DNA from: an uncultured Bacilli bacterium
GTDB taxonomy: Bacteria; Bacillota_I; Bacilli_A; RF39; UBA660
Reading direction: 5' to 3'
DNA: 64,000 bases
NCBI GenBank assembly: GCA_958421325.1
Contig: CATZLO010000002.1
Location: forward strand, 529 to 64,528
A program made the translations under genes and the position numbers. Positions 20,347-53,782 of this stretch are shown here, one piece after another (within the stretch, counting starts at the first letter, position 1; each line of letters opens with the position of its first letter). The notes under the pieces were generated by a model. It was given only the letters and a program-made list of their open reading frames with translations, was not told the origin of the DNA and did not search any database.

Positions 20347-20587
20347 GAAGAGGTGGACATACATTAGGATCCGGGGCATAGAAACAATGATTTTTAAATC
20401 TTCCTGCTAGGGTTTGATCATACCATGTACTAATACAGTTGTTATTTCTTCCAGGGGCATAGAACCATAAAGCATTAGTAGCAGGGTAGTAATATTCTCC
20501 TTTTAAGTTTCTTTCTGCTAGTTCTCTTTCTTTGATAGTAGAGCCTGATGTAAATTGTGGGCTGTTGATACCAGCGAAACCTCCAGG
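20347..20587 (-). pseudogene. cwlJ: cwlJ (SleB/CwlJ Hydrolase_2 family cortex-lytic enzyme), C-terminal fragment
   Basis: Minus strand reads (PGGF)AGINSPQFTSGSTIKERELAERNLKGEYYYPATNALWFYAPGRNNNCISTWYDQTLAGRFKNHCFYAPDPNVCPPLH*. It continues the N-terminal fragment at 53589-53782. Confidence 0.8.
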
Positions 20588-20606
20588 TTTTTGTTAGTTA
20601 GTACTA
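20580..20606. other. attL of the prophage (core CCTCCAGG plus phage arm TTTTTG-TTAGTTAGTACTA)
   Basis: Core at 20580-20587 is identical to 53589-53596. The 13-bp arm 20594-20606 is the exact inverted copy of 53570-53582. Confidence 0.75.
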
Positions 20607-21956
20607 TATAAAATTAACAGTTATGTTTTTGTTTTTGTCTATTGTTATATTATCAATAATACTTCGCCAAAGTCTTTGTTTTTCTACATCTGTTAAAGTG
20701 TCATAAATGGTTAAGAAATCCATTTTTAGAAACTTTTGTAGATTATCTATATTAATATTTTGCTCTTCTTGGTTCGCTTGTTCTTCTTTCTTTAACTCTT
20801 CTTTTAAATAGTTGTAGTCATTATTATACTTATCTTTGTCTATTAAATCATTAAGATATAGATCCACAAGTTTATTCATTTTATTTTTTATTTCTGTTGC
20901 TTTATTTTTTCTTGTTATCTTTTTCTTTTTATTTGCATTTAAGATATTATTTTCTGCTATTTTTAAAATATTTTCTTTTAAATAGTCCTCAATATACATT
21001 TCTGTTAATGCTGTTGTATTGATACAATTCCTTTCTACGTAGTGTTGTTTACATCTGTATATTTTTGTATAACCTGTTTTGGCACCTCTTGTTCCTCCTG
21101 CCATTTTAAAACCGCATTCTTCACATATTATTAAACCACTAAATATATAATCTCTCTTTGTGTTAGAGTTATATATTTTTATGTTTCTTTTTAATTCTTT
21201 TTGCACTCTGTAAAATTTATCTTCATCAATAATAGCAGGGCAGAAGTCTTCTATTAGTTCTTTGTTTTTAGTCGTTGTAAATTTTCCTATATATTTAGTA
21301 TCAGTAAGATAGTTTCTAATACTTCCTATACTCTTATTTCCTATATTATTTTTAAACCATTGATGAGTTTTTACTAAGCTTGATGTTTTTAAGTAGTAGT
21401 CATATAATTCATTTAATTGCTCTGCTTCTTTTTCATTAATTATAAGATGCTTATTTTTATCTATATCATAACCAAATATTTTAGCTCCTGTACAAACTGT
21501 CTTTGCAACTTTATATTTGTAGTTATTTACTCTATTAATACGTTCAGAGTCCTTATTTCTTTCGTGTTCTGCAAGGTTTACTTTAAGGTTGAATATAAAT
21601 CTACCATCAGCAGTAGAAGTGTCTATATCGTCCTCATCTATAGCTTTAAATGAAGTGTTATGTTTATCTAATTCTACTAGTAGGTTATTAGCATCTCTTA
21701 CATTTCTTGAAAACCTATCTAATTTTGTAAAAATGATTAAATCTATATTATCAAGGTCTTTAAGCAGTCTTACAAATTCTTTTCTTTTTGATATTGTTCC
21801 TGCTGATACACCTTCATCTATGTAATAGTCATATATTTTATATTTATTTCTTTTACAATATTGTGTTAAACTGTTCTTTTGATCGTCAACTGATATTCCA
21901 AACCTCTTTTGTTCTTCAGTTGATACCCGACAATATATTGCTACATTTTTAATCAT
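20604..21956 (-). CDS. Large serine recombinase (prophage integrase)
   Basis: VAIYCRVSTEEQ, LDRFSRN, recombinase domain, zinc ribbon CEECG..CKQH..C, coiled-coil C-terminus. The stop codon lies inside the att arm. Confidence 0.9.
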   Translation of the reverse strand: MIKNVAIYCRVSTEEQKRFGISVDDQKNSLTQYCKRNKYKIYDYYIDEGVSAGTISKRKEFVRLLKDLDNIDLIIFTKLDRFSRNVRDANNLLVELDKHNTSFKAIDEDDIDTSTADGRFIFNLKVNLAEHERNKDSERINRVNNYKYKVAKTVCTGAKIFGYDIDKNKHLIINEKEAEQLNELYDYYLKTSSLVKTHQWFKNNIGNKSIGSIRNYLTDTKYIGKFTTTKNKELIEDFCPAIIDEDKFYRVQKELKRNIKIYNSNTKRDYIFSGLIICEECGFKMAGGTRGAKTGYTKIYRCKQHYVERNCINTTALTEMYIEDYLKENILKIAENNILNANKKKKITRKNKATEIKNKMNKLVDLYLNDLIDKDKYNNDYNYLKEELKKEEQANQEEQNINIDNLQKFLKMDFLTIYDTLTDVEKQRLWRSIIDNITIDKNKNITVNFI

Positions 21957-22096
21957 TATAGCACTTCCTTTCTTTAATTTTATTGATAAGAAAAGATTTT
22001 AATGCTATAATTAAATAGCAGAAATAAATTTCTTATCGTAGTGGGTATTGAAATATTTTCTGTTTTGATCTCGTATGCCAGTACGAGGTCTTTTTT

Positions 22097-22609
22097 TTAA
22101 TTTAAATTATCAATAGCATATTGTGCCTCTTCGGCAGTAAATTGCTCTCCATATTCCGAAACTAATTGATCATATATTGCATTTTTAGACATACTCATTG
22201 TTTCTTGATAATCTTTAGCTTTTGCAAGTGCATTGGTATTCCAGTCGGCTTGAACATTATCTATTGCATATTGGGCTGCATCTGCTTCAAATTGTCCTCC
22301 ATATTCAGAAGTTAGTTGATCATATATTCCTTGTTTAGACATGTGCATAACATTAGCATAGGTATCAGCTTGATTTAAAGCATTTCTATATTCAGTTGGT
22401 ATATTTTCTTCAACAGTTTGAGTATCTTCTTTTTCTTCTATTGTTTCTGTTACTTCATCAGTTTGTTGTTCTTCTTGCTTATTGTTATCGTTACTATCAT
22501 CTGAAAGATTACTATTGTTTCCACCAGCTAATCCTCCAATTATACAAATAACTAGTACTATAATAACTACAATTGCCCATTTAGGCATTTTCTTTTTCTC
22601 TATTTCCAT
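22097..22609 (-). CDS. Ltp-family surface protein (superinfection-exclusion type), two Ltp repeats
   Basis: N-terminal membrane anchor. Duplicated module NA(L/I)..A..Y...M.MSK..IYDQL.SEYG.QF...AQYAIDN, as in Lipoprotein_Ltp repeats. Confidence 0.6.
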   Translation of the reverse strand: MEIEKKKMPKWAIVVIIVLVICIIGGLAGGNNSNLSDDSNDNNKQEEQQTDEVTETIEEKEDTQTVEENIPTEYRNALNQADTYANVMHMSKQGIYDQLTSEYGGQFEADAAQYAIDNVQADWNTNALAKAKDYQETMSMSKNAIYDQLVSEYGEQFTAEEAQYAIDNLN

Positions 22610-22669
22610 GATTTACACCTCCTTTACTACAGTAAAATTTATATTAAAAGCACCTATACTAGCATATTT

Positions 22670-22984
22670 TTAAACGTGTTTAATATTATTTAAAAGAAAG
22701 TCTATATATTTATCTGCTTCATCTTCTGCATTTTCTATTGAAAAAGCATATAGTTCACTATTTCTATCAATATGATGAAGTTCTATATGAGCAAATTCGT
22801 GAAGGATAGTTTTTATTTTTTTTTCTTTTGAAATGTTCCAGTTTATTACTATTAAATAAATGTCTTTATATTTATTAACAAAACCATATATTTTTTTTGG
22901 CAATTTTTTATAAATAATTCTTGCATTATTAATAATTAAATACTCTTCTTGGGTTAATTCTCCTCTTAATAATTCTATTAACAC
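22670..22984 (-). CDS. ImmA/IrrE-family zinc metallopeptidase
   Basis: HEFAHIELHH (HExxH). Sits directly downstream of the XRE repressor in the same operon. GTG start. Confidence 0.7.
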   Translation of the reverse strand: MLIELLRGELTQEEYLIINNARIIYKKLPKKIYGFVNKYKDIYLIVINWNISKEKKIKTILHEFAHIELHHIDRNSELYAFSIENAEDEADKYIDFLLNNIKHV

Positions 22985-23030
22985 AATATCACTCCTTATT
23001 TTGTATGAATAGGATACTGCTATATTTTTA

Positions 23031-23375
23031 TTAATTATCTAATTCCTTATCAATATCTTTGTGAATTGCATTAATAACTCCAAGAACTGCTTTTTTGTCT
23101 TCGCTTGATAATTCTTTAATTTTTGAAAAAAGTATTCTATCTAATTCATTGTTTTGCTTATCGTTAGGTGGGAAGAAATCATTAATTGATACATTAAAAT
23201 AGTCAGCTAGTTGAAATAAAAAATCTTGCTTAAATTGTCTAAGATTATTTTCGTAACGTGCTATTTGTTGTTGAGTAACACCTAAATCTTCAGCTAGTTC
23301 TTGTTGTGTTAAATTCTTAGAAAGCCTAAGAGATTTTAATTTATCAGCACAATATTTATTTACACTGTTACCCAT
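23031..23375 (-). CDS. CI-like XRE-family prophage repressor
   Basis: LKSLRLSKNLTQQELAEDLGVTQQQIARYENN. ATG 23375 follows AAAGGAGAG; the track ORF is extended upstream to 23471. Divergent from the cro-like gene. Confidence 0.8.
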   Translation of the reverse strand: MGNSVNKYCADKLKSLRLSKNLTQQELAEDLGVTQQQIARYENNLRQFKQDFLFQLADYFNVSINDFFPPNDKQNNELDRILFSKIKELSSEDKKAVLGVINAIHKDIDKELDN

Positions 23376-23412
23376 ATAAACTCTCCTTTCTGTAAATATA
23401 TTAACACCAATT

Positions 23413-23485
23413 ACTCCATAATGGAAGAAAAAAGTAAAAAAAAATACAAAAAAGTATTGACTATACTCCAAAATAGAGTTAATAT
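23413..23485. promoter_or_regulatory. Genetic-switch region: operators O1/O2 and divergent promoters
   Basis: O1 ACTCCATAATGGAAG (23413-23427). O2 ACTCCAAAATAGAGT (23465-23479) fills the spacer between TTGACT (23457-23462) and TAATAT (23480-23485). Confidence 0.6.
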
Positions 23486-23520
23486 GAAAATGTCATAAGA
23501 CAGAATTGAGGTGAAATTAT

Positions 23521-23742
23521 ATGCAAAGTAAATTAATTATTTTAAGAAAAGAGCGAGATATTAAGCAACAAGAATTGGCAGATTTGCTTAATATTAATGT
23601 TAAAACTTATAATTTTAAAGAAGCTGGTAAAAGTCAGTTTACTATGAATGAAATGTTTAAAATATCTGATTTTTTTGGTAAATCAGTAGAAGAAATTTTT
23701 TTACCAACAGTACTCCAAAATGGAGTTGAAATTAAGGGGTAA
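23521..23742 (+). CDS. Cro-like XRE-family HTH regulator
   Basis: LRKERDIKQQELADLLNINVKTYNFKEAGKSQFTMNEM. Divergent from the repressor. Confidence 0.75.
   Translation: MQSKLIILRKERDIKQQELADLLNINVKTYNFKEAGKSQFTMNEMFKISDFFGKSVEEIFLPTVLQNGVEIKG
23712..23726. promoter_or_regulatory. Third operator copy O3 (best palindrome) inside the 3' end of the cro-like gene
   Basis: ACTCCAAAATGGAGT: 6-bp arms ACTCCA/TGGAGT around a 3-nt spacer. Confidence 0.5.
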
Positions 23743-23811
23743 AATTTTAATAAATACTCACTACGTACTTATAAATAATAAGTCGAATAAAATTTAATAG
23801 GAGGTATGAAT

Positions 23812-23922
23812 ATGAAATTACCTAGCGACTTAGAAGTAAGACTCTGGCAAGCCTTAGCAGAAATATTAACTGATAAAGTTGGTGTAGAAATTGTAGCTAA
23901 AATTGAAAATAGTAATGAATAG
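23812..23922 (+). CDS. Small ORF (36 aa), below the track threshold
   Basis: ATG follows AGGAGGT. Product MKLPSDLEVRLWQALAEILTDKVGVEIVAKIENSNE. Confidence 0.3.
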   Translation: MKLPSDLEVRLWQALAEILTDKVGVEIVAKIENSNE

Positions 23923-24038
23923 GGAAGGAGATTATGGCATTAGATAAAAAAAGAAAGATTAAAGCCAGCCAGCAATTAATCTTTTGTTAAATAAATTAAC
24001 AATTTTATTTTATCACAAAATGTCATAAATGTAAAAAT

Positions 24039-24233
24039 ATGAGAAAAGTAAGATTAAGAAAACGGGTTAGATTAACTTTATTAATATTATTTGGAATTAT
24101 TATTGCAATTATTATTGCCAACTTAATATGTGATAGTTCTAGTTCTTTTGATAATTATGCTGCTATGTGTGATCGAGAAAAAGGATCATTGTGTACTTAT
24201 TATGAGGTTAGAAATTACATGATAAATAAGTAA
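24039..24233 (+). CDS. Small membrane protein
   Basis: Basic N-terminus plus one TM helix. Confidence 0.35.
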   Translation: MRKVRLRKRVRLTLLILFGIIIAIIIANLICDSSSSFDNYAAMCDREKGSLCTYYEVRNYMINK

Positions 24234-24249: not shown

Positions 24250-24915
24250 ATGATACAAGATAGTTTTGTTTTTTATGATAGTTTTAGAAATGCAGTAAAA
24301 AAGAAGAACGATGATAAGAGATTAGCATTTTATGAGGCAATAATTGATTATGCTTTAACTGGTATTGTGCCTAATTTAGATGAGGAATTAGAGTCATTGT
24401 TTATAATGGCAAAACCACAATTAGATGCTAATACTAAAAGAAAAAAAGATGGTAGAAAGGGTGGTAGGCCATCTAAAAAAGATGATAACAACCTATCGAA
24501 TAACTATGAAAAAAGTATAGTTTTGGAAGAAGAAAACTATAAAAAAACCAGTGGTTTTGAAGAAGAAAACCATAGGTTAGAAAGTAAAAAACCTAATGTA
24601 AATGTAAATGATAATGTAAATGTTAATGCTAATGTTAATGTATTAGAATTTGCAGAAAAAGAATTTGGCAGAACATTATCATCTACTGAAATTGGATTTA
24701 TTAATTCGTGGACGTATAATCCTGAAATTATAAAACTTGCTATTCAAGAGACAGTCCTGAATCAAGTTTATAATGTGAAATATACTGATAAGATTCTTTA
24801 TGAGTGGGATAAAGCTAATCTAAGAGATACTAATTCTATAAAAAAACATTTAAAAAAAAGAAGAGAGAATCAGTCTATAGATAATGAAGAATGTCATTAT
24901 CGGAGGTTAGAGTGA
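24250..24915 (+). CDS. DnaD-domain replication protein (replisome organiser)
   Basis: C-terminal EFGRTLSSTEIGFINSW...IKLAIQETV...YTDKILYEWDKANL is DnaD/DnaB_2-like. Central (NV)n linker. Confidence 0.6.
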   Translation: MIQDSFVFYDSFRNAVKKKNDDKRLAFYEAIIDYALTGIVPNLDEELESLFIMAKPQLDANTKRKKDGRKGGRPSKKDDNNLSNNYEKSIVLEEENYKKTSGFEEENHRLESKKPNVNVNDNVNVNANVNVLEFAEKEFGRTLSSTEIGFINSWTYNPEIIKLAIQETVLNQVYNVKYTDKILYEWDKANLRDTNSIKKHLKKRRENQSIDNEECHYRRLE

Positions 24916-26177
24916 TGTATGATTTAGAAGAAGAAATTATTGGATGCTTATTAGTTCATCCAGAGAATATTAGTAGGTTAGTAATATCAGACGAATGTTT
25001 CAAAAACAATGAGAACAGATTTATCGTTAAGCTTATAAAACAACAATATCAAGATATTAGAAATATTGATTTAATTGCTTTAGGAGAGAAATACAAGCAT
25101 TTGTTTAATCAAAAGTTTAATCAAGAAATAATCATAAAAAAGATGGTTAATATCATGACTAATACATTTGGTCATAATTTTGATTATTATCAAGAATTAT
25201 TATTTGAAAGGTATGTAAACGATTTAATTTTAAGTGTAATTGATAAATTTAAAAATAATCAAATATCACAAGATGAATTATTAACTTCTATTCATAAATA
25301 TGAAGCTTTAAGCATTAAGACAAATGCTAATAAATTAACTGGAGAGGAGGTTTTTAAAATAATAAATTCAAAAAATAAAGGGATTAATTTTAGATTTGAA
25401 AAATTGTCTAAGTATGCAAATATACAAGAGCATGATCTAGTTGTAGTAGCTGCTAGACCTGGTATAGGTAAGACTGGCTTTGTTCTAAATTTAATGGAAG
25501 ATTTATCAGACAGATATAATTGCATTTTATTCAACATGGAAATGAGTGATAAGCAAGTGTATCAAAGACTTGTTGGCATAAATACAAAGATACCAATTAT
25601 ATATCACGACAATCCTGCTACTGATTATCAAAAAGAACAGTTGGTTAAAAGTAGTAAAGCTATTGCAAGCAAAAACATCAAAGTAATCAGTAGAAGTCAA
25701 ACTATTTCTAGCATTAGAAAGAGAATAATTGAAGAGAGTAAACAAGGGCATACACTAGCATTTATTGACTATGTAGGTCTAATTGGAAGTAATGATAAGA
25801 CTAAGTCTCTATACGAGAAAACAACTGCTATTGTTAAAGAACTAAGACAAATTTCTTTAGATTACGACTGTACTATATTTCTAGTTGCTCAAATTAATAG
25901 AAATTCTGAAAATGCAAAAGATAAGAGACCTAAGATTAGTGATTTAAAAGAAACTGGAGAATTAGAACAATCTGCTACTACAGTGCTTATGCTCCATAAT
26001 GAAAATTATTACAAAGGAATTGAAATGAAAATTGAAGAAATAGAGGTAATAATTGGCAAAAATAGAAATGGTCAAACAGGAATTCTTACTCTTGAATACA
26101 ATCAACAAACACAAAGATTTGACGTTAAAGGAACTAATAAAATTTATAATGAACCAAATAAGTGGAGAAAGGAATAA
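24915..26177 (+). CDS. DnaB-type replicative DNA helicase
   Basis: Walker A AARPGIGKTGF, LFNMEMS, IDYVGLI, VAQINR. ATG 24915 overlaps the upstream TGA. Confidence 0.85.
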   Translation: MYDLEEEIIGCLLVHPENISRLVISDECFKNNENRFIVKLIKQQYQDIRNIDLIALGEKYKHLFNQKFNQEIIIKKMVNIMTNTFGHNFDYYQELLFERYVNDLILSVIDKFKNNQISQDELLTSIHKYEALSIKTNANKLTGEEVFKIINSKNKGINFRFEKLSKYANIQEHDLVVVAARPGIGKTGFVLNLMEDLSDRYNCILFNMEMSDKQVYQRLVGINTKIPIIYHDNPATDYQKEQLVKSSKAIASKNIKVISRSQTISSIRKRIIEESKQGHTLAFIDYVGLIGSNDKTKSLYEKTTAIVKELRQISLDYDCTIFLVAQINRNSENAKDKRPKISDLKETGELEQSATTVLMLHNENYYKGIEMKIEEIEVIIGKNRNGQTGILTLEYNQQTQRFDVKGTNKIYNEPNKWRKE

Positions 26178-26180
26178 AAA

Positions 26181-26456
26181 GTGGAAAAAGGACTGAAAGA
26201 ATTAGAAAAAAGGGTTAGTAGGTTAGAAAATGTAACAGGTAATACTTATGATTTTTATTGTAGCAACCGATACTTAATGTTACCTGTAGAATTATTAAAA
26301 CTAGGAGTATTTAATTACGATGATAATCACTTATTAGAAAATATAGAATTACATAAGGAAATAAACAAGCTTAAGCAAAAAAACAAACAACTTGAGGAAC
26401 TAGTAACTAATTTGTTGTTTAAATTAGAAAATAAGGAGGTAATAGATGTGATATGA
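26181..26456 (+). CDS. Hypothetical protein
   Basis: GTG start, coding-like, in operon. Confidence 0.35.
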   Translation: MEKGLKELEKRVSRLENVTGNTYDFYCSNRYLMLPVELLKLGVFNYDDNHLLENIELHKEINKLKQKNKQLEELVTNLLFKLENKEVIDVI

Positions 26457-26965
26457 AAGTTTTGACAAAAAGGAGATATGAAGAGTTGCAAAACGAACTT
26501 TCAAATAATGAACTAGAAATTTGTGATTTAAATAAAAGGTTAGATTTAAAAAAATCTAAAATAGATGAACTTGAACAAGATAAAAAATATATGAAAGAGC
26601 AAATCGATTCTTTTGCTAAAATACGGCAAGAATTACGAGAAAAAATAAAAGAATATAAACAAACATTAAGAAAAGCTAATGGTTCTGTTGGAGGGTTAAC
26701 TAAAGAGAACGAAAAGCTAAAAAACAAAATAAAAGCTTTAGAAAGCGAGGTTGAATTATTAACTGAAACTAAAAATAAATTAGTTAAAAATTGTAAAAAC
26801 TCAATTGATGAAAACACTAAATTAAAAAAAGCTTTAGAAAAGATTAATCAAGAGAAAAGTAAATTACAAACATCAGTAATTCAACTTAATGAAAAAAATA
26901 AAGTATTATCCAGCAAAAAGAAAGTTAAAGACTATTTAAGAAGAGAAGAAAGGAAAGAGAAATAA
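26453..26965 (+). CDS. Coiled-coil protein
   Basis: K/E-rich heptad sequence. ATGA overlap upstream. Confidence 0.4.
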   Translation: MKVLTKRRYEELQNELSNNELEICDLNKRLDLKKSKIDELEQDKKYMKEQIDSFAKIRQELREKIKEYKQTLRKANGSVGGLTKENEKLKNKIKALESEVELLTETKNKLVKNCKNSIDENTKLKKALEKINQEKSKLQTSVIQLNEKNKVLSSKKKVKDYLRREERKEK

Positions 26966-27213
26966 TGAAAGTAACAAATGTAAATTTAAAGAAAGTAGAA
27001 GATAAAGGATCAGTTAAAGCATATGCAACTATTATCTTAGATGATAGTTTAGCAATCCATAATATTAGATTAATCGAAGGGAAAGAGAGATTATTTATTG
27101 CTTTTCCAAACTACAAAGATAAGAATGAAGCATATCACGATTATGTTCATCCAATTGTTTCTAATTTAAGAGAGGCTATTGAAAAAGTTATTTTAGATAA
27201 ATATAATAACTAG
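26965..27213 (+). CDS. SpoVG-family protein
   Basis: MKVTNVNLKKVEDKGSVKAYATIILDDSLAIHNIRLIEGKERLFIAFPN matches the SpoVG fold consensus as recalled. Confidence 0.7.
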   Translation: MKVTNVNLKKVEDKGSVKAYATIILDDSLAIHNIRLIEGKERLFIAFPNYKDKNEAYHDYVHPIVSNLREAIEKVILDKYNN

Positions 27214-27348
27214 ACATTATAAAAAGTAAGTATAATAACACTCCTTGATTATCTTTCATTGCCTCCCTTCTTGTATTAATGGTGGTTTACAATGCGAGTT
27301 TGTCTTACTGGGTTTGGCATTGTTCTATTTTTAGAAAGGGGAAAATAA

Positions 27349-28175
27349 TGAATTTGGAAGAAAAATTAGAAGACTTTGAATTATCTTTAAAAGAAACAGA
27401 AAAAGCAGATGCAACTATAAAGAAGTATAGAACTAATGTTAATGCTTTTATAAAATATGTCGAAGATAAAAAACTCACTAAAAGAACAGTTATAGAGTTT
27501 AAAGAGCAATTAGATAGTGTAGATAAATATTTACCTAATACTACAAATAATTATCTAATTGTTCTAAACAAGTTTTTCAAATTTATTGATCGTGAAGATT
27601 TATGTGTGAAGATAATAAAACAGCAAAATAAGTTCTCTGTAGATTATTCTTTAAGTAAATCTGATTATCATAGATTATTAAGAACAACTAAGAAGTACGA
27701 AGAAGATGATAATTATATTATCTTAAGAATATTAGCCGAAACAGGTATACGTATTTCTGAGTTGTCTTTTTTTAAAGTAGAAAGTCTATCTAAAACTATA
27801 AAGGTTAGAAATAAAGGCAAAGATAGGGAAATACCTATCAAATTAGATTTATTACGAGTAATAAGAAAGTATTGCCGAGATAAAAAAATAAAAGAGGGAT
27901 TAGTTATATTTAATCCTAAAACTAATAAAGCCTATGCTGATTCTACTATTTGGAGAAGATTAAAGAAAATAGCTGGTCGAGCAAGAGTGAATAAAAATTC
28001 AGTACATCCGCATGCTTTTAGACATTACTTTGCAAAATGCTATTTAGAAACTTATCCAAATGATATAGCAGGATTAGCTGATATATTAGGTCATAATTCT
28101 TTAGAAACTACAAGAATTTATACAAAATTAACAAATAAAGAAAAAGAGTTGAAGATTAGAAATATTAAGTTTTAG
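27349..28175 (+). CDS. Tyrosine recombinase (XerC/D-like, short)
   Basis: ETGIRISEL, HPHAFRHYFA, LGHNSLETTRIYT (R..HxxR..Y). ATG 27349 follows AAAGGGGAAAA. Confidence 0.8.
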
Positions 28176-28192
28176 AGAGGAGAAAGTTAAAT

Positions 28193-28522
28193 ATGAAATA
28201 TATAGTAAAGGTAGGAGATATGTTTGTTGAAAATACAATAATGAGTCCAGGTTGGGATGATGGTTCTAGATTAAAAAATATAACATTATCAACCGATAAA
28301 ATTATGAATATGAGTTTGAAAGAAAAGAATGTTATAATGAATAGTTTATCTCTTTATGGAATAAAAGCCACTGCAAAAGAAATCAATGATAGTTATATCT
28401 TACAATATGATTTAGAATTTTTAATTAAAAGAGAAAATAAGTTGCAAAGAATAGAGCAATTATTTAAAAGTGAGGTAGTTGATCTAGAAGAATTAACAAA
28501 ATTAGTGAAAGGGGATAAATAG
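28193..28522 (+). CDS. Hypothetical protein
   Basis: RBS GAGAGGAG. In operon. Confidence 0.4.
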   Translation: MKYIVKVGDMFVENTIMSPGWDDGSRLKNITLSTDKIMNMSLKEKNVIMNSLSLYGIKATAKEINDSYILQYDLEFLIKRENKLQRIEQLFKSEVVDLEELTKLVKGDK

Positions 28523-28523
28523 A

Positions 28524-28715
28524 ATGAAATATTTTTTAAGTGTTATGAAGTATATTTCTTTATCAATCACATTGGTTATTACTTGCTTTATAATTTATTT
28601 TATATTTTTTAGTAGTTTATTAGATTTAGTTTTATTTATTATAATGGAAATAATTTCAATAGTTCAGACTTATACGATAGATAAAATGGCAAAGGAAACG
28701 TGGAGTAATGAATAA
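28524..28715 (+). CDS. Small two-TM membrane protein
   Basis: Hydrophobic 63-aa product. Confidence 0.35.
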   Translation: MKYFLSVMKYISLSITLVITCFIIYFIFFSSLLDLVLFIIMEIISIVQTYTIDKMAKETWSNE

Positions 28716-28726
28716 AGAGGTTCGTA

Positions 28727-28933
28727 ATGAAATTTAGCGATTATATAAAAAATCCTACTATTAATAATTTGATTAAATTAAAGAAAGAGCAACTTTTAAT
28801 ATTAGAAACTGATTTAAAAGACACAGGAGATGATGGTTTTGGCAGAAAGCAAAGAAGAATCGATAATATGAAAGAGGATTTGAGAAGGCTTGAAAATGAC
28901 GCTAAAGAACATATTACAACAAGAAATAAATAA
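28727..28933 (+). CDS. Hypothetical protein
   Basis: Charged 68-aa product. In operon. Confidence 0.35.
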   Translation: MKFSDYIKNPTINNLIKLKKEQLLILETDLKDTGDDGFGRKQRRIDNMKEDLRRLENDAKEHITTRNK

Positions 28934-42457: not shown

Positions 42458-42591
42458 ATTGGCCTACTATTAAATATACTGCAATTACAATTGGATTAAG
42501 TATAGATGAATTAATGCATTTAAATCCGATTGATTTTTATAAAATGGTTGATATGTACACAAAAATGCAAAGGAAGAAATATGGCAAATGA
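42125..42591 (+). CDS. Tail assembly chaperone GT fusion via -1 programmed frameshift
   Basis: A9 run at 42410-42418. The -1 frame is open from 42412 to TGA 42589-42591 and reads KKRPEIYTTKEIEKIDWPTIKYTAITIGLSIDELMHLNPIDFYKMVDMYTKMQRKKYGK. Confidence 0.55.
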
Positions 42592-45124: not shown

Positions 45125-45127
45125 GAT

Positions 45128-45976
45128 ATGGAAAAATTAGTATATGAAAATTCTTATGGTAATAAAATTGAATTAACAAATAAATTTCCTTATTTTTTAG
45201 AAGATTACACAGGAATTCACGAAAAGTCTTCTGAATTATATGGTATTAGCTCTGCTTTTGGAATTGGAGAACTCTATGTAGGAAGAAGTATAAATAAAAG
45301 GAATATTATGATTTATGGCTATTTTAAAAATAATTTTATTGAAAGAAGACAATTCCTATATAATGCTTTTCCAGATAATGATGAGGGAACACTTTTTTAT
45401 TATGAAGATGATTTTTCTTCAAAAATAAAATGCAGAGTTGAAAAAGTAGAAATTACTAAAACTGGTCCAATTAGATATTTTACAATTTCTTTAATTGCCT
45501 TTGAACCTTTCTTTACTGATATAGAAGAAACTATTATCCCTCTTGCTTCTTGGGAAGGAGGAATAGAATTCCCTTTAGAGATACCTGAAGAGGGAATAGA
45601 GTTTGAAACTAAAAATAATAATGTGGTAGCGGAAATTGATAATCCTACAAAAATTGAAAATGGCTTAACCATTATATTTACTTGTAGTGGTGCAGTGGGT
45701 AAACCTTCAATTAAAAACATAGTTAATCAAGAAATATTAACTTTAGATTATGATCTTGAGATAGGCGATGTAGTTACAATTACTACAGGCATAAATAATA
45801 AAAATATCATTCTAGCTAGAGATGGAGTTGAAACGAATATAAATAATTATTTATTATTTGGTACAAAGTTTTTACAATTAAAACCAGGACAAAATAATTT
45901 TAAAATTTTAGCAGAAGAAGGAATAGAAAATTTAACGACTGAAATTAGATATTCCTTATCTTATGAGGCAATTTAA
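45128..45976 (+). CDS. Distal tail protein (Dit)
   Basis: Position after the tape measure gene. 282 aa. Confidence 0.65.
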   Translation: MEKLVYENSYGNKIELTNKFPYFLEDYTGIHEKSSELYGISSAFGIGELYVGRSINKRNIMIYGYFKNNFIERRQFLYNAFPDNDEGTLFYYEDDFSSKIKCRVEKVEITKTGPIRYFTISLIAFEPFFTDIEETIIPLASWEGGIEFPLEIPEEGIEFETKNNNVVAEIDNPTKIENGLTIIFTCSGAVGKPSIKNIVNQEILTLDYDLEIGDVVTITTGINNKNIILARDGVETNINNYLLFGTKFLQLKPGQNNFKILAEEGIENLTTEIRYSLSYEAI

Positions 45977-47970
45977 TGAAATGGGTTGAAGTAGATACCA
46001 AGGTTAAGGGGTATGGTAGAGATATTATTTATGCTAATGAAATGTTTTGGCTTGCTCACTACAATCCTAATGGAATTGCATATAGTAATGATTTAAAAAA
46101 ATGGATTGATATTAAACTAGACGATTCAAAATTTGAATTATCCAATCTTGCATATGGTAATGGGATATTTATAGCGAACGGTTCTTCTGGAACTGAAAAT
46201 AAAACTTATATTGCAATATCTGAGGATGGGATAAACTGGAATTATAAACAATTAGATATTCAAACAACAAGTAAACTTTCTTTAAATATAAATTCTTGTA
46301 AGTTTATAAATAATAGATTTATTTTTATTGCTGGTTTTAGTAGTTATAATACATTAACTAACATAAGGACCAATACAATTTTAATTTATGAAACTTTAGA
46401 TGGGCAAAACATCAATATTCATAAATATATTCATCAAACAATAGGTGATTTAAAATATGGAATAATGGATATAGATTATAATAATAATCTGTATGTATTA
46501 GTAGGCGAAAATGGTTTTATTATAACTTCACCTGATTTAAAATCTTGGACTGTTAGAAATAGTACTGTAAATTGTAAGTTGGTAGGTATAACATATGGAA
46601 GAAACATTTTTGTAATAACAGGTGCTAATGGTACTATTTTAACATCAGAAGATGGTATTAATTGGCATAAACAAAAGTCTGATACATCGGCATATTTAAT
46701 ACGTTCTAGATATGGTAATGGGACTTTTGTTGCAGTAGGATATAATGGTACAATATTAACTTCTATAAATGGTACAGACTGGATAGAAGAGCAAGATAAT
46801 TTTGTTAAAACAATTATGTTTGGCCTTGTTTTTGCTAACAATTACTATGTAGTTTCGGCTGGAAGATACTCATCTACTGATACTATTCCTATAACTTATT
46901 CACAAATTTCAAGAGAATTAACTTATTCTAATGATGAAGCTCTATATATTTTTGATAAAAAGTTAAACTTTTTAGGTGTAATTGATCAATTTATTTCGCT
47001 GAGGTGGAGACGTAAATATTACGAAGCAGGAGAGTTTGAATTAATTGTTGCTCCATATCAAAATAATATTAATTTGTTGTCTAAAAAAGATAATATAATT
47101 ATAAGACAGGATTATAATGAAGCTGCTTTAATTGATACTGTTGAATTTAATGATGATGGCAACAATGTTCAATTAAAAGTATCTGGTAATTTTCTGTCTT
47201 ATTTAACTAAGAGAAGAATTATTCGTAAAATTATAAATTTCAAAGGAAACATAATAGAAGGGCAGAAACAGCTTTTAAGAGAAATGACTGCTTTAACAGA
47301 TGATTTTGAAATAGAACCTACTTCAATAGATAGTAATTATGTTGAATTTCAATGCAGTTACAAAAATGTTTATGAGTATTTATGCAAGTTGTCAAAACTT
47401 TCAAGTGTGGGTTTTAGGATAGTTCCTAATATAGAAAATAAAGTTTATAGATTTGAAAATTTTGTTGGTTTAAATCGTTCTAGTCAACAGAGCCTTAATG
47501 AACGATATGTATTTTCTACAACACATAACAATTTAGAAAAATCTAATTATATAGATACTTTGATAGATAAATGTAATTATGTATTAGTAGGTGGTGTTGG
47601 AGAAGGTACTAGTAGAACTTTAGTAGAGGTTAAAAATGGTGATCATGAAGGTTTTGATTTATTTGAAACTTTTCTTGATGCTAAAAATGAAAGTAATAAT
47701 AATCTTTCATCTTCTGAATATAAAAATGTGCTAGAAACTAAGGGAAAAGAAAAGTTGAATGATGAAACAAAAAATATAGAGTTTACTGCTATATCTAATG
47801 ATTATCGAACTAAATGGGATCTAGGAGATATAGTTGATGTAGAAATTGTTGACTGGAATATAAAAGAAACATTGAGAATTACTGAGGTTGAAGAAACTAT
47901 AGAAAATGGTAAAAGAACCGTATATCCTACGTTCGGACAACCTCTGGCTGAAAAAATAGAATTAGATTAA
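45976..47970 (+). CDS. Tail-associated protein: N-terminal Asp-box/beta-propeller-like repeats fused to a Sipho_Gp37-like domain
   Basis: Repeated S/T-x-D/N-G-x-x-W units (SEDGINWNY, SPDLKSWTV, SEDGINWHK, SINGTDWIE). C-terminal half has ..LYIFDKKLNFLGVIDQFISLRWRRKYYEAGEFELIVAP.. Confidence 0.6.
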   Translation: MKWVEVDTKVKGYGRDIIYANEMFWLAHYNPNGIAYSNDLKKWIDIKLDDSKFELSNLAYGNGIFIANGSSGTENKTYIAISEDGINWNYKQLDIQTTSKLSLNINSCKFINNRFIFIAGFSSYNTLTNIRTNTILIYETLDGQNINIHKYIHQTIGDLKYGIMDIDYNNNLYVLVGENGFIITSPDLKSWTVRNSTVNCKLVGITYGRNIFVITGANGTILTSEDGINWHKQKSDTSAYLIRSRYGNGTFVAVGYNGTILTSINGTDWIEEQDNFVKTIMFGLVFANNYYVVSAGRYSSTDTIPITYSQISRELTYSNDEALYIFDKKLNFLGVIDQFISLRWRRKYYEAGEFELIVAPYQNNINLLSKKDNIIIRQDYNEAALIDTVEFNDDGNNVQLKVSGNFLSYLTKRRIIRKIINFKGNIIEGQKQLLREMTALTDDFEIEPTSIDSNYVEFQCSYKNVYEYLCKLSKLSSVGFRIVPNIENKVYRFENFVGLNRSSQQSLNERYVFSTTHNNLEKSNYIDTLIDKCNYVLVGGVGEGTSRTLVEVKNGDHEGFDLFETFLDAKNESNNNLSSSEYKNVLETKGKEKLNDETKNIEFTAISNDYRTKWDLGDIVDVEIVDWNIKETLRITEVEETIENGKRTVYPTFGQPLAEKIELD

Positions 47971-47984
47971 GGTGGTGAAATAAA

Positions 47985-48659
47985 ATGGAAGAATCAGGAT
48001 TTTTTGCTTCTATAAAAGGAGATAGAAAATATAAGAGTGACTTAATAGCCACTTTTTTTTCTAAATTATTTACTAATGGTGTTTTTAATAATGAATTGCA
48101 AGTACAAGCTAATAACGATATGACAGTAACTTTAAAGTCTGGAATAGCTTTTATTAATGGCTACTTTTATAATAACACAATTGATAAAGTAATTAATATT
48201 AGTTTGTCGGATACAGAACAATCTAGAATTGATAGTGTTGTATTAAGGCTTTCTAAGGAAAATAGACAGATAATAGTGGATGTTCTAGAAGGTGCATATG
48301 CTGATAATCCAGTAGTTCCAGAACTTACGAGAAATTCAAACATATATGAGTTGAGATTATGCAATATTCTAGTTAACAAACAAGCTGATAGCATAACACC
48401 AGCAATGATAGAAGATTGTAGATTTAATTCAACTGATTGTGGTCAAGTAATATCAGCAGTACAACAATTAGATACTACAGAAATATTTGCTCAATATCAA
48501 GCAGTTTTTGAGGATTTATTTGAACAGATGAAAGGAATATTGAGCGGAGATGTAGTGGGAGAACTACTTGTTGAAATAAATAATATAAAGAATAAAATGG
48601 TTAGTCTTGGCACTTGTACTGATGAAGAATTAGAAGCAGCAATTGCCGAAAGTGATTAA
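47985..48659 (+). CDS. Hypothetical baseplate/tail-fibre-associated protein
   Basis: Position only. Confidence 0.4.
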   Translation: MEESGFFASIKGDRKYKSDLIATFFSKLFTNGVFNNELQVQANNDMTVTLKSGIAFINGYFYNNTIDKVINISLSDTEQSRIDSVVLRLSKENRQIIVDVLEGAYADNPVVPELTRNSNIYELRLCNILVNKQADSITPAMIEDCRFNSTDCGQVISAVQQLDTTEIFAQYQAVFEDLFEQMKGILSGDVVGELLVEINNIKNKMVSLGTCTDEELEAAIAESD

Positions 48660-50118: not shown

Positions 50119-50128
50119 AGGAGGAACA

Positions 50129-50737: not shown

Positions 50738-50756
50738 GAGAGGAGGATAGATAAAT

Positions 50757-51005
50757 ATGGAAATAACTTACGTGATCATAATAGCAATAGTTGCTTACAT
50801 TTGTGGTGCTATTACTAAAATGTTTATTGAGAATGTACCTAATAAATATATACCTATTCAAAATGTAGCAGTGGGAATTGTGAGTGCATTAATTTGTTAT
50901 TTTACAGGTATTGAGCCAAACCTATTACAAGCATTGGTATTATGTATTGTAGCAACTATGGGTGCTGGTGGAATAGCAGATTTAATTAATATTAAAAATA
51001 AGTAG
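50757..51005 (+). CDS. Holin
   Basis: 82 aa, three hydrophobic segments. Lies just upstream of the lysis enzyme. Confidence 0.6.
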   Translation: MEITYVIIIAIVAYICGAITKMFIENVPNKYIPIQNVAVGIVSALICYFTGIEPNLLQALVLCIVATMGAGGIADLINIKNK

Positions 51006-51020
51006 AGGAGGTAAAAATAA

Positions 51021-51293
51021 ATGAAAAATGATGAAATGTTAGATCTATGTAAAGAAGTTGTTGTTAATTACTTTAATGATAATGTTGATAAAACAGATGG
51101 ATTAAAAATTAATAAAGATAATGTTTTCATTGTGTGGTTTTCTAAGACATTACAAAACTTTAAAGCATTAGTAAGTACTACTGTAAGTGACGGAATGTAC
51201 TATGAACTTACTTATAACGGTGATAAGCAAGAGCTTTATTTAGATGCTTATAAAAAATGGGAAAATAAATGTATTAAAGTAGAGGAGGAATAA
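51021..51293 (+). CDS. Hypothetical protein
   Basis: RBS GAGGAGG upstream. Confidence 0.4.
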   Translation: MKNDEMLDLCKEVVVNYFNDNVDKTDGLKINKDNVFIVWFSKTLQNFKALVSTTVSDGMYYELTYNGDKQELYLDAYKKWENKCIKVEEE

Positions 51294-51296
51294 TAT

Positions 51297-51398
51297 ATGG
51301 CAACATTTAAAGAAGGTACAAGCCTTCCAAAAGAAGAAGCTAATTTAGAAGAAGTAAAAAATGGAATAGCTGAAGATGGAAAAGGAAGTGATGAATAA
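51297..51398 (+). CDS. Small acidic ORF (33 aa), below the track threshold
   Basis: ATG follows GAGGAGGAA. Its stop overlaps the endolysin ATG (TAATG). Confidence 0.3.
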   Translation: MATFKEGTSLPKEEANLEEVKNGIAEDGKGSDE

Positions 51399-52294
51399 TG
51401 GAAATAATCGAAATGCTAGCACCACTTGGCTATAATTGTAGATCTGGAATTTCTAGGCCTGGTTTTAAAGGTATTTCAATTCATAATACTTCTAATTGGA
51501 ATAAAGGAGCAAATGCAATAGCTCACGCAAATTTATTAAGAGGTTCTTGGAAAAACAATTATACTTCTTGGAATTATGTAGTAGATCAAGATCGAGCAGT
51601 TAGATGCGTTCCTGAAAATGAAGTTGCATGGTGTCAAGGGGACGGCAGAGGAGATGGAAATATGAAAACTATTTCTATTGAAATTTGTGATAATTCTGAT
51701 GGCGATATTAAAAAAGCAACTGATAATGCAGTAGAGCTTTGTGCTGAAATTTTAAAAAGATATGGTGTAAAAAATGCAAGTAGTTATTTATTTCAACACA
51801 ATCATTGGACTGGTAAAGACTGCCCTTACGATATAAGAAGAGGAAATCCTTATGACTGGAACACTTTTGTTTCTAAAGTACAAGAAAAATTAAATGGAAG
51901 TTCATCTAGTATTAGTAATAGTGCAGATCAAGTGTTAACAGTAGGATCTAAAGTAAGATTCAACGGAGTATTCAAAGTAAATGAATTAATACTTCCTAAC
52001 AACAAATATCCTAATGGAGCTATTGGATGTTATGTGACTTGCTATGGTTCTCCTTGTGGGGTTGATGATTATATTCCGAGTGGACCTATTGCTAAATGTG
52101 ATGCTAATGGAAATAATGCTAACTATAATGCAATTCTAAAAAATGGAGATTATTGGAAATGTGATAAAGAGTTCACAGTAATAGGAATAGAATTACCTAC
52201 TAAATATCTAAAGAATGGAGTAGCAATACTAGAAGCAGACGGTGTAAGATTTAGATGTGATTGCGGTCCTTTATATGAAGTATCTAATAATTAA
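51398..52294 (+). CDS. Endolysin: N-acetylmuramoyl-L-alanine amidase (Amidase_2/PGRP) with C-terminal binding domain
   Basis: GISIHNT..AHANLL..SWNYVVDQDRAV.CVPE..AWCQGDG..ISIEICDN. Confidence 0.85.
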   Translation: MEIIEMLAPLGYNCRSGISRPGFKGISIHNTSNWNKGANAIAHANLLRGSWKNNYTSWNYVVDQDRAVRCVPENEVAWCQGDGRGDGNMKTISIEICDNSDGDIKKATDNAVELCAEILKRYGVKNASSYLFQHNHWTGKDCPYDIRRGNPYDWNTFVSKVQEKLNGSSSSISNSADQVLTVGSKVRFNGVFKVNELILPNNKYPNGAIGCYVTCYGSPCGVDDYIPSGPIAKCDANGNNANYNAILKNGDYWKCDKEFTVIGIELPTKYLKNGVAILEADGVRFRCDCGPLYEVSNN

Positions 52295-52329
52295 AAGGTA
52301 GAGTCTTAATTGGCTCTACCTGTTTTTTT
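52293..52329. terminator. Bidirectional terminator between the endolysin and the convergent moron operon
   Basis: GGTAGAG (52297-52303) / CTCTACC (52314-52320), flanked by AAAA and TTTTTTT. Confidence 0.7.
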
Positions 52330-52341
52330 ATGTTAAACTTT

Positions 52342-52794
52342 TTATTTATAATTACTGATTAGTTCTTCGTAATCTTTATAAGTAATATATCCATCTGCTA
52401 CTTGCTCATCTTTATCATCAAATACTGATATGTAAGCATAAGTATGGTCATCTAATACTGTAGTATTAAAGCTACCATCTTCTAACTCATAATATTTTTC
52501 TAATAATGTATCTTGAGTAGAGTAGTGACCTGCAGAGAAGTCTTCTCTAAAATTTTCTTTCTCTTCTACTTCATTTCTTTTTAAAAAGTTAATTACATCA
52601 AATTTATTCATCATAATCTTTATTCCTTTCTTAAATTCATAAATACTTTGTTTTAGAAAGTCTGTTTTTGTTATATTTTCTCTTTCTAAAAGTTTATCTA
52701 AGCTTTCTTTTTCTTCAATTTTTAACTTTGCTTTAAATTGACTATAATGTTCTTTTTCATAATTATTGTCATATTCTCTTTTATTAAAAGCCAT
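52342..52794 (-). CDS. Hypothetical protein (basic N-terminal helix region, acidic C-terminal half)
   Basis: Second gene of the minus-strand operon at the prophage right end. Confidence 0.4.
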   Translation of the reverse strand: MAFNKREYDNNYEKEHYSQFKAKLKIEEKESLDKLLERENITKTDFLKQSIYEFKKGIKIMMNKFDVINFLKRNEVEEKENFREDFSAGHYSTQDTLLEKYYELEDGSFNTTVLDDHTYAYISVFDDKDEQVADGYITYKDYEELISNYK

Positions 52795-52796
52795 AT

Positions 52797-53075
52797 TTAC
52801 ACCTCACTTTTAAAGAAATTCTCTTTTTCTTCATAATCTAAGTCTCTAAATTCTTTAACACTTATACTCTTTAAAGTATTCCAGTTATAATTATCTTCAT
52901 CTTCTGTAGTTACTTTAGATAGAGTATACACATGCTCTTTATTAACCTTATACATATAACTACTTTCATCTTCTAAAGTCTTCCTTAAATCTTCTAATGC
53001 TTCTTCATAACTATTATATTCATTACCTCCGTTGAAACTTCCTTCTTCTTCTACTACATAAAATTCTCTTTCCAT
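52797..53075 (-). CDS. Small strongly acidic protein
   Basis: ATG 53075 follows GAGGAAGG (the track ORF starts at 53105). E/D-rich 92-aa product. Confidence 0.4.
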   Translation of the reverse strand: MEREFYVVEEEGSFNGGNEYNSYEEALEDLRKTLEDESSYMYKVNKEHVYTLSKVTTEDEDNYNWNTLKSISVKEFRDLDYEEKENFFKSEV

Positions 53076-53108
53076 TTTTCCTTCCTCACTTTCTAAATTT
53101 CTCATAAT

Positions 53109-53230
53109 TTGACAAGTGATAATTTTCTATGTTATATTATTAGCGAAGAGGAGCATTAGCTCCATCTTCTCGAATGTTTAGTGACTTTATGTTTTCGGTT
53201 TATCTGAAAATGTAAGGTCACTTTTATTTT
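53109..53230 (+). ncRNA. Candidate antisense sRNA (promoter to intrinsic terminator)
   Basis: TTGACA (53109-53114), 18 nt, TATATT (53133-53138). 17-bp stem 53180-53196 / 53206-53222 (3 G-U pairs), then TTTATTTT. No plus-strand ORF. Confidence 0.45.
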
Positions 53231-53254
53231 CCATAATACTATAGAAAATTTCAC
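53156..53254 (-). CDS. Small basic ORF (32 aa) at the head of the moron operon
   Basis: AAAGGAGGA, 6 nt, GTG. Product MKFSIVLWKIKVTLHFQINRKHKVTKHSRRWS. Almost fully overlapped by the antisense candidate. Confidence 0.3.
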   Translation of the reverse strand: MKFSIVLWKIKVTLHFQINRKHKVTKHSRRWS

Positions 53255-53278
53255 TTTTCTTCCTCCTTTCATGATAAT

Positions 53279-53308
53279 AGTATACAACAACTAGGTACCT
53301 AGTGTCAA
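53279..53308 (-). promoter_or_regulatory. Promoter of the moron operon with a 12-bp palindrome in the spacer
   Basis: Minus strand: TTGACA (53308-53303), 18-nt spacer containing CTAGGTACCTAG (53291-53302), TATACT (53284-53279). Confidence 0.5.
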
Positions 53309-53569
53309 TAAGTTTTTAGAAAAATGTTGATTTTTTTTAAAATTTATTTTATACTCTAATTACTTTATAATATTTGATTCAGACAAATTGATTAAAGTGA
53401 TACAGTGCTACAATTGTTCTTTTTAATTCTATGTCTTCTTAAATGGTTGTAGCGAGTTGTGTTTTTCCAATATTATATTAATTGACAGAGTCATATGAAT
53501 ATAGCTCACCCCTAAAAAAATAACTAGGTCTATAACCTAGTTTTCTTTATATAATGGTATGCCTTTTTG

Positions 53570-53596
53570 TAGTACTAACTAATAAAAGCCTCCAGG
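53570..53596. other. attR of the prophage (phage arm TAGTACTAACTAA-TAAAAG plus core CCTCCAGG)
   Basis: Exact inverted copy of the attL arm. Identical 8-bp core. Confidence 0.75.
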
Positions 53597-53782
53597 ATTT
53601 TGATAAACCATTTTAGTAATAGTATTTATATTTCTAAAAGTATAGCAGTTAGCAAGTACTCTATTTACGCCAACATTACCTACCATAAGCATACCGTATT
53701 CTCCTTCGCCTACTGCTTCGGCTCGCATTAGTCTTGCTAATAAATCTAATTCTTTACTTGTATATTGAACTACTTGAGACAT
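53589..53782 (-). pseudogene. cwlJ: cwlJ, N-terminal fragment
   Basis: MSQVVQYTSKELDLLARLMRAEAVGEGEYGMLMVGNVGVNRVLANCYTFRNINTITKMVYQNPGGF, then phage-derived Y*. The LARLxRAEA.GEG..GM..VGNV..NR block is typical of CwlJ/SleB. Confidence 0.8.

Follow-up and report, generated by a model that had tools for sequence, protein, structure and literature searches.

A temperate phage that looks intact and functional divides a homologue of the germination gene cwlJ in the DNA studied here, a 64,000-nucleotide stretch of contig CATZLO010000002.1 from an uncultured Bacilli bacterium (hereafter "the window"; positions are counted from its first nucleotide). The prophage carries its own large serine recombinase (LSR), and the two halves of cwlJ that flank it are predicted to be rejoined exactly by recombination between its attachment sites. 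We regard this structural account, read from the sequence, as very nearly certain. Does such a phage merely disrupt the gene, or does its removal form part of the host's development? By analogy with SPbeta, phi3T and skin, we propose that the prophage may be excised in the mother cell during sporulation, which would restore cwlJ; we assign this proposal a probability of roughly 0.5.

A prophage divides a cwlJ homologue

The element comprises 33,001 bp (20588-53588) plus one copy of a short core sequence, and both halves of the interrupted gene lie on the minus strand. The N-terminal fragment (53782-53579) is an open reading frame (ORF) of 67 amino acids (aa), MSQVVQYTSKELDLLARLMRAEAVGEGEYGMLMVGNVGVNRVLANCYTFRNINTITKMVYQNPGGFY, that begins MSQVVQYTSKELDLLARLMRAEAVGEGEYGML and ends MVYQNPGGFY followed by a stop codon. 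It consists of native residues 1-66, including the RAEAxGEG motif, then Y and the stop; phage-derived GGC-TTT re-encodes G-F, which leaves Y as the sole non-native residue. The C-terminal fragment (20587-20342), which supplies residues 63-143 and the stop, runs from PGGFAGINSPQFTSGS at 20587 to RFKNHCFYAPDPNVCPPLH, with its stop codon at 20344-20342. The 8-bp core CCTGGAGG is present at both junctions (53596-53589 and 20587-20580). When 53782-53597 and 20587-20342 are fused through this core, a 143-aa ORF results, the product of which matches Pfam Hydrolase_2 (PF07486; 4e-15) over model positions 1-100 of 100. The insertion point thus lies between codons 65 and 66 of the CwlJ homologue, in the middle of the Hydrolase_2 domain.

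A previous sequence-only reading of the window had described colinear cwlJ halves that join through a shared 8-bp core into one ORF of roughly 145 aa, an N-terminal half that terminates soon after it enters phage DNA, and an LSR gene that ends inside attL. All of these features are present, the joined product being 143 aa long, and the identification of an LSR prophage inside a genuine CwlJ homologue is borne out by Pfam domains, phage modules and the logic of the att sites, and strengthened by empty sites in conspecific strains, by free attP forms and by the return of a whole LSR clade to one target. That reading also placed the end of the C-terminal half at 20347; the ORF itself stands, and 20347 proves to be the first base of the last sense codon. 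A search of the window revealed no second copy of cwlJ.

Empty sites in related strains

If the phage was inserted into a functional gene, uninterrupted copies should exist elsewhere, as the sequence-only reading had anticipated. They do: the exact predicted 68-nucleotide (nt) attB, free of phage, occurs in 10 conspecific contigs from other samples, with flanks of 99.3–99.9% nucleotide identity, and the flanks of the window abut at the same point in 24 related species. One of the contigs with an empty attB, L104, also carries the window's IS3 insertion and its second island, both of which are described below. On at least 60 public contigs, an uninterrupted gene encodes precisely the joined 143-aa protein, and the exact 67-aa stub is found on 5–9 others, each time followed by the right end of the same phage. 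Where that phage occurs in other samples, it is 99.8–100% identical. Public runs in which lysogens occur are ERZ28615161, ERR15871999, ERR13267186, SRR24653414, ERZ27244874, ERR13960928, ERR11569659 and ERR15872450. The prophage is polymorphic within the species, the majority of conspecific contigs being without it.

The recombinase and its attachment sites

The LSR gene (20604-21956, minus strand) encodes a 450-aa integrase in which Pfam identifies Resolvase (4e-33, residues 5-142), Recombinase (9e-11) and Zn_ribbon_recom (7e-9) domains. The catalytic-serine motif YCRVSTEEQ (VAIYCRVSTEEQ) is present, and a coiled-coil insertion was read from the sequence only. The matches in the PDB are the integrases of TP901-1 and A118, and residues 156-448 align best with the C-terminal domains of the A118 integrase; identity to the TP901-1 integrase is 29% over 428 aa. 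The best matches among isolated phages, phiCD27 and phiFL, are only 36% identical, which points to an uncultured phage type.

The TAG stop codon of this gene overlaps the inverted-repeat arm of attL (20580-20605, minus strand), a site composed of the phage arm AGTACTAACTAACAAAAA and the core at 20580-20587. At the other end, the attR core (53589-53596, minus strand) covers codons P63-G64-G65 and adjoins a phage arm with the inverted repeat TTAGTTAGTACT (53571-53588, minus strand). The attP reconstructed from these arms, ...AGTACTAACTAA-CAAAAACCTGGAGGCTTTTA-TTAGTTAGTACT..., has perfect 12-bp inverted repeats. Its architecture matches that of free attP contigs, since all attP sites share the pattern GTACTAA-N10-CCTGGAGG-N10-TTAGTAC. 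The likeness between attB (AATCCTGGAGGTTTCGC) and attP (AAACCTGGAGGCTTTTA) is confined to about 8–12 bp. Because the symmetry centre is CCTG|GAGG, the crossover dinucleotide is probably GG; in the attB sequence, the Pro-Gly-Gly codons of NPGGF stand at the centre. Both natural states of the same LSR are present in public data, namely attL/attR on the one hand and attB with attP on the other. As judged from its domains and att sites, the enzyme belongs to the phage serine integrases.

The 140-nt intergenic region upstream of the LSR gene (21957-22096) is nearly identical among phages (in contigs L085, L089 and L090) whose LSRs are just 79–90% identical, and it contains the palindrome TGCTATTTAATTATAGCA. 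On the strand opposite to the LSR gene, it bears a strong sigma-70-like promoter (21983-22011; 11/12, extended TG) and then a terminator (22067-22090). The region could specify a small antisense or divergent RNA, or it could act as an operator that controls int. A search of the whole window with Rfam returned a tRNA-Trp only, with no match in this region.

A clade of integrases at the same codons

Homologues of the LSR were sampled together with their contigs; the identities given here are relative to the LSR of the window. An LSR that is 90% identical (P0131) lies beside cwlJ residues 63-143 in three different host contexts, and it also occurs at a free attP junction by lysis genes. Another, at 79% (P0148), was found in the attP form. 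A third, at 68% (P0156), is integrated by a C-terminal half of cwlJ that is only 62% identical to the window's, and it too has an attP form. A fourth, at 60% (P0176), lies in inverted orientation beside an N-terminal half (residues 4-65). Hence, cwlJ residues 63-66 are the integration site of LSRs at 100, 90, 68 and 60% identity, in hosts with CwlJ proteins that are as little as 62% identical.

Free attP forms were found for three lineages and for one IMG/VR phage with an LSR that is 40% identical. A scan of IMG/VR with the LSR protein had detected no relative; this 37-kb phage was found later by its attP DNA pattern, along with two JGI contigs, and the LSRs of these scan hits are only 40–52% identical. 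On this comparison of sequences, a whole clade of phage LSRs has the P-G-G codons of cwlJ as its conserved attB.

Contig L095 (4363-4461) also has the LSR P0176, found inside cwlJ in L093 and L094, but here what follows it is CCTCCCGG and an unrelated, GC-rich stretch. The junction could stem from integration off target, from a different host or from a chimeric end of the contig.

The joined protein and its promoter-like motif

Over 136 of its 143 aa, the joined protein is 46% identical to Bacillus subtilis CwlJ (E 7e-47). The reference sequence was confirmed by an exact-match look-up, which returned 'cell wall hydrolase CwlJ [Bacillus subtilis]'. The architecture is that of the CwlJ subtype: the protein is colinear with B. 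subtilis CwlJ, of similar length (143 aa vs. roughly 142), and composed of a single catalytic domain with no N-terminal peptidoglycan-binding domain. Against the SleB equivalog model TIGR02869, it scores just 37 bits, the cut-off being 236. A phmmer search of PDB sequences with the joined protein gave no match at E<=0.01. Paralogy within COG3773 has been noted (10.1101/2022.02.25.481979).

Across related species, the dN/dS of cwlJ is 0.03–0.10; by this measure the gene is under strong purifying selection and thus matters to the organism. Every lysogen examined retains both split halves as intact ORFs, and upstream of the N-terminal half the motif is kept.

That motif resembles promoters of the mother cell. 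In B. subtilis, CwlJ is produced in the mother cell under sigma-E and acts when endospores germinate; there, the −10 consensus is CATAcanT for sigma-E and CATAnnnTA for sigma-K. Within the window, AC-N16/17-CATAnnnTA has a single match in promoter position, the putative sigma-E/K-like promoter AC-N16-CATAAATTA upstream of cwlJ (53797-53823, minus strand). This promoter is odd in one respect: it ends just 4 nt from the ribosome-binding site (RBS) AGGTGAT, which implies a very short leader. Of 48 dereplicated regions upstream of cwlJ, which otherwise defy alignment, 41 have CATAnnnT at a distance of 22–26 nt from the ATG, where chance would put it in about 8%. The same CATAnnnT-RBS architecture precedes about 10 of the approximately 283 other RBS-bearing ORFs in the fetched loci. 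These include genes for a CwlD-like amidase (189 bits over the full length of TIGR02883, slightly below the 221-bit cut-off), three Amidase_3+LysM proteins, one LysM protein and one Ca-ATPase. At the motif loci in related genomes (L033:8082-8765, L028:9468-11099, L034:2171-3211, L058:2645-3103, L060:4427-5554 and L070:1789-2415), the arrangement is CATAnnnTA-N4-AGGTGAT. We consider the CATAnnnTA-RBS motif a candidate mark of genes controlled by a mother-cell sigma factor in these uncultured Bacilli.

Possible excision in the mother cell

Recombination of attP with attB by the LSR placed the phage in the middle of the Hydrolase_2 domain. The lysogen is consequently left with only a 67-aa remnant under the putative promoter of cwlJ and with a C-terminal half that has no promoter and adjoins the integrase gene, and precise LSR-mediated excision would regenerate the intact 143-aa gene of conspecific non-lysogens. 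Excision would most likely follow two routes. The first is induction via the ImmA/cI-type switch. In the second, the LSR and a putative recombination directionality factor (RDF) would act in the terminally differentiating mother cell, such that CwlJ would be synthesised and incorporated into the spore. The prophage would stay in the genome of the forespore.

The second route, to which we gave even odds above, is suggested by precedent: every prophage-like element that has been tested in a sporulation gene of the mother cell is excised when the cells sporulate (PMC4191935, PMC5595907, PMC10747680). It would also agree with the long persistence of a phage clade in a gene on which purifying selection is strong, with both halves intact in every lysogen examined, and with the conserved sigma-E/K-like −10 motif upstream of cwlJ.

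A number of observations weigh against excision in the mother cell. The strict sigma-K consensus (AC-N16/17-CATAnnnTA) occurs nowhere in the prophage, including upstream of the LSR gene, and no phage ORF has the CATAnnnT-RBS architecture of cwlJ and cwlD. Two search designs therefore failed to detect a sigma-E/K promoter driving an RDF, which the sequence-only reading had suggested looking for upstream of int and the small ORFs; this negative is a weak one, as the sprB promoter also has an imperfect −35 element (PMC4191935). Among 30 small or unknown ORFs, no RDF or excisionase was recognisable with PHROGs. A 64-aa ORF (24039-24233) was considered as an Xis and rejected, having no similarity to the Xis of TP901-1, no RBS and a hydrophobic helix that makes it resemble a membrane peptide. 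Just inside attR is a bidirectional hairpin resembling an intrinsic terminator (53522-53542), conserved in the attP form L086; it would insulate phage genes from read-through from the cwlJ promoter, which argues against control from that promoter. The TP901-1-like layout suggests, by analogy, that excision is coupled to induction, and the host possibly has a redundant, SleB-type second cortex hydrolase. The prophage varies in presence within the species, most conspecific contigs lacking it, and is therefore no fixed developmental element like skin. Finally, no core spo gene is present in the window and 8 kb of extra flank (about 72 kb of the species).

Two further sets of ORFs were considered as sources of an RDF. 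The right-end ORFs, if expressed from the host's cwlJ promoter, were set aside: a terminator lies between, a promoter-like site of their own precedes them, and sister phages do not share them. A conserved 36-aa ORF (23813-23923) is a candidate by position only.

Could the phage instead be an ordinary lysogen that inactivates cwlJ by insertion? We find this plausible, at somewhat less than even odds. The P-G-G codons would then be merely a stable, widely conserved attB, excision would occur only upon induction, and lysogens would form CwlJ-less spores, the cost being borne through a second cortex-lytic enzyme or through slower or altered germination. CwlJ and SleB are partly redundant in B. subtilis. 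The polymorphism of the prophage and the failure to find either a sporulation-type promoter or an RDF in it are as this explanation would have them, and the free attP contigs indicate normal lytic activity. The switch is arranged as in TP901-1, whose Xis sits in the repressor-controlled early operon. However, a dN/dS of 0.03–0.10 fits poorly with a phage clade, its LSRs diverged to 40–60% identity, that persistently knocks out cwlJ. Moreover, no lysogen examined shows decay of the split halves, and every published precedent in a mother-cell gene is an element that excises when the cell sporulates.

The evidence also allows a broader and more tentative proposal. A gut phage clade with LSRs diverged to about 40% identity and a conserved attP architecture may have co-evolved with the P-G-G codons of cwlJ as a germination-competence switch in uncultured, reduced-genome 'ex-Tenericutes' Bacilli. 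The switch might work in either of two ways: excision in the mother cell would license the deposition of CwlJ, or lysogens would deliberately make CwlJ-less spores. Taking both versions together, we view it as possible, with the balance tilted against it.

Probable sporulation in the host

Is the host a spore former? From its sequence and those of its relatives, we judge this likely. The relatives are metagenome-assembled genomes of uncultured gut 'Bacilli' or 'Tenericutes', Candidatus Onthousia among them, and in one of these SpoIID-domain, CwlD-like and CwlJ-like genes are clustered. The G+C content of the window is 26.8%. Among orders related to Mycoplasmatales, a 2024 study predicts sporulation with a reduced gene set in walled groups, the RFN20 families CAG-631 and CAG-449 and the order RF39; it also predicts that some RFN20 families neither sporulate nor possess peptidoglycan (PMC10868615). 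The present host is walled, because it encodes YfhO and EzrA and its phage has an amidase endolysin.

Were the host unable to form endospores, the Hydrolase_2 protein would have a vegetative or other non-sporulation role, CATAnnnTA would belong to another regulon, and the phage would be a plain prophage in a conserved gene. The non-sporulating RFN20 families just mentioned, the lack of core sporulation genes in the 72 kb of the species and the small genome of the complete relative OZ006970.1 (1.52 Mb) favour this view. We nonetheless think it improbable: the protein is colinear with and 46% identical to B. subtilis CwlJ, the RFN20 families in question are predicted to lack the peptidoglycan that the wall genes of this host and the endolysin of its phage imply, CwlD-like and SpoIID-domain genes adjoin cwlJ in a relative, and the conserved −10-like motif fits the sigma-E/K consensus.

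An assembly artefact, that is, a chimeric contig fusing phage and host DNA, might be suspected of metagenomic-type data such as these and in view of the odd GC-rich flank of the related contig L095, but it is excluded by identical attL junctions in 4 other, independent samples and identical attR junctions in 7, and by a flawless att-site logic in which the 8-bp core and the inverted-repeat attP are matched by exact attB and attP sequences found elsewhere.

Gene content of the prophage

Modules for lysogeny, replication, packaging, head, tail and lysis are present without obvious disruption by Pfam and PHROGs, and from its sequence the element appears to be an intact, functional temperate siphovirus with a TP901-1-like layout. 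The lysogeny switch (22097-23742, both strands; Pfam and PHROGs) comprises, on the minus strand, genes for an Ltp lipoprotein (22097-22609), an ImmA/IrrE-type M78 protease (22670-22984) and a cI-type helix-turn-helix (HTH) repressor (23031-23471), with a divergent Cro-like HTH gene on the plus strand (23521-23742).

The genes that follow lie on the plus strand and, except where stated, were assigned with PHROGs. The early or replication region (24250-30290) encodes a DnaD-like loader and a DnaB helicase. Within it are two tyrosine-recombinase-like genes (27279-28175 and 28890-30290) and, before them, a SpoVG homologue (26965-27213); in contig L081, which has the identical phage, precomputed Pfam matches to SpoVG and Phage_integrase accord with these assignments. 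These three genes accompany the LSR; they may serve dimer resolution or belong to a nested element. An HNH endonuclease, the small and large terminase subunits, the portal, a ClpP-type head protease and the major head protein are encoded between 34025 and 39729. The tail module (42530-48659) includes the tape measure (42530-45124), Dit (45128-45976), a minor tail protein/Tal (45976-47970) and a further structural protein (47985-48659). The lysis cassette (50757-52294) contains small holin-like ORFs, so labelled from the annotation of neighbours, and an Amidase_2 endolysin (51398-52294; Pfam Amidase_2, 9e-19).

Between the endolysin gene and attR, in the position of a moron, two ORFs of 102 and 150 aa lie on the minus strand (52342-53105) behind a sigma-70-like, promoter-like site (53308-53279). 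They have no Pfam, PHROG or PADLOC match, and PADLOC returned nothing for the moron and island genes. Sister phages have different cargo at this right-end position, for example DUF3800 and SocA_Panacea-like proteins.

Other elements in and around the window

A second integrative element of about 10.6 kb (9361-19981) occupies the 3' (CCA) end of the tRNA-Trp gene (19984-20057, minus strand) and is flanked by TCTGGCA repeats. It encodes a 569-aa LSR (9440-11149), a truncated resolvase-domain ORF (11133-11834), a small resolvase (13240-13833), an ApeA-like protein (14258-15544), an ADP-ribosylglycohydrolase (15726-16676) and an HTH protein. This element is absent from most conspecific contigs (L081-L084, L103 and L105-L107) and present in L104.

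An IS3-family insertion (55182-56625; rve transposase at 55213-55917, HTH_Tnp_1 at 56067-56579) separates a pair of paralogous DUF3048 (YerB-like) genes. Related species lack the insertion, and only some of the conspecific contigs have it.

The interval between an ABC transporter gene and tRNA-Trp (5128-9360) is much shorter in related species. In the window, it holds a type II restriction-modification pair, consisting of a C5 cytosine methylase (5128-6132) and an NgoFVII-like endonuclease (6129-7232), and an ISL3 transposase fragment (8518-9204). In the conspecific contig L122, from the sample that also yielded the lysogen contig L096 (ERZ27244874), an ISL3 copy downstream of the restriction-modification genes is followed by ftsH and tilS, not by tRNA-Trp and cwlJ. 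This arrangement points to either a rearrangement mediated by the IS or a join made there during assembly.

Significance

The site in cwlJ is no single oddity: a diversified clade of serine-integrase phages has it as its dedicated attB. Elements in sigK, spsM, spoVFB, spoVR, gerE and yabG are the textbook cases of irreversible "active lysogeny", and cwlJ would extend this list to a germination enzyme. If either version of the switch proposed above is true, this would be the first prophage switch on a germination enzyme and an indirect sign that these lineages sporulate, with a regulon of the sigma-E/K type that the CATAnnnTA-RBS motif marks. Should the version with CwlJ-less spores hold, the phage would set the dormancy and germination of its host and hence its transmission from host to host. 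Were excision not developmental, the phage would instead amount to a naturally occurring knock-out of the gene for a germination enzyme and could affect spore-mediated transmission in the gut. The CATAnnnTA-type motif would offer a handle on a sporulation regulon in organisms for which sporulation has so far been predicted from gene content. Lastly, with their attP/attB pairs defined and natural attB, attP, attL and attR sites all observed, these LSRs are candidate integrase tools.

Comparison with known systems

In structure, the prophage resembles the elements that intervene in sporulation genes: it is inserted in the coding sequence of CwlJ, a protein with a presumed role in sporulation, it has its own recombinase, and the ORF appears restorable. 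The behaviour that defines these elements, excision in the mother cell during sporulation, is proposed here by analogy. Sigma-E/K control of the recombinase or of an RDF was not detected in the prophage by the searches described above, a weak negative. In the literature searched, which did not cover subscription journals, we found no report of cwlJ as the target of an intervening element.

The nearest parallels are SPbeta in spsM of B. subtilis (with the integrase SprA and the RDF SprB) and the related phages phi3T in kamA and Goe14 in spoVK; all are likewise intact, inducible LSR phages inside sporulation genes of the mother-cell type. As in the SPbeta group, the LSR gene lies at the end of the element by an att site, and precise excision would restore the ORF. 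Unlike SPbeta, the phage targets cwlJ, which encodes a germination cortex hydrolase; it is 33 kb long with a TP901-1-like layout, compared with 134 kb for SPbeta; its LSR is not close to SprA; and no SprB-like RDF or sigma-E/K promoter was found in it. The host also differs, being an uncultured gut Bacilli member with a reduced genome, in which sporulation-specific excision is proposed by analogy.

The elements of the skin type, namely skin in sigK (SpoIVCA and Skr; B. subtilis and C. difficile), vfbin (spoVFB), vrin (spoVR), gin (gerE) and yin (yabG), share with the cwlJ phage a serine recombinase, short core repeats and the interruption of a sporulation gene. Those elements are mostly defective, lineage-fixed remnants, whereas the cwlJ phage is apparently intact, polymorphic and active, as free attP forms and empty sites indicate.

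Lactococcus phage TP901-1 (Orf7 Xis) has the same gene order (int, orf2, metalloprotease, cI and a divergent early operon with mor) and the same LSR domains, but it uses a non-sporulating host and an unrelated attB. The Listeria phages A118 and phi10403S in comK offer a parallel in active lysogeny, since there too an LSR prophage splits a regulatory or developmental gene that precise excision can restore. The comK switch is reversible and operates in vegetative cells in phagosomes; the switch proposed for cwlJ, by contrast, would be irreversible and confined to the mother cell.

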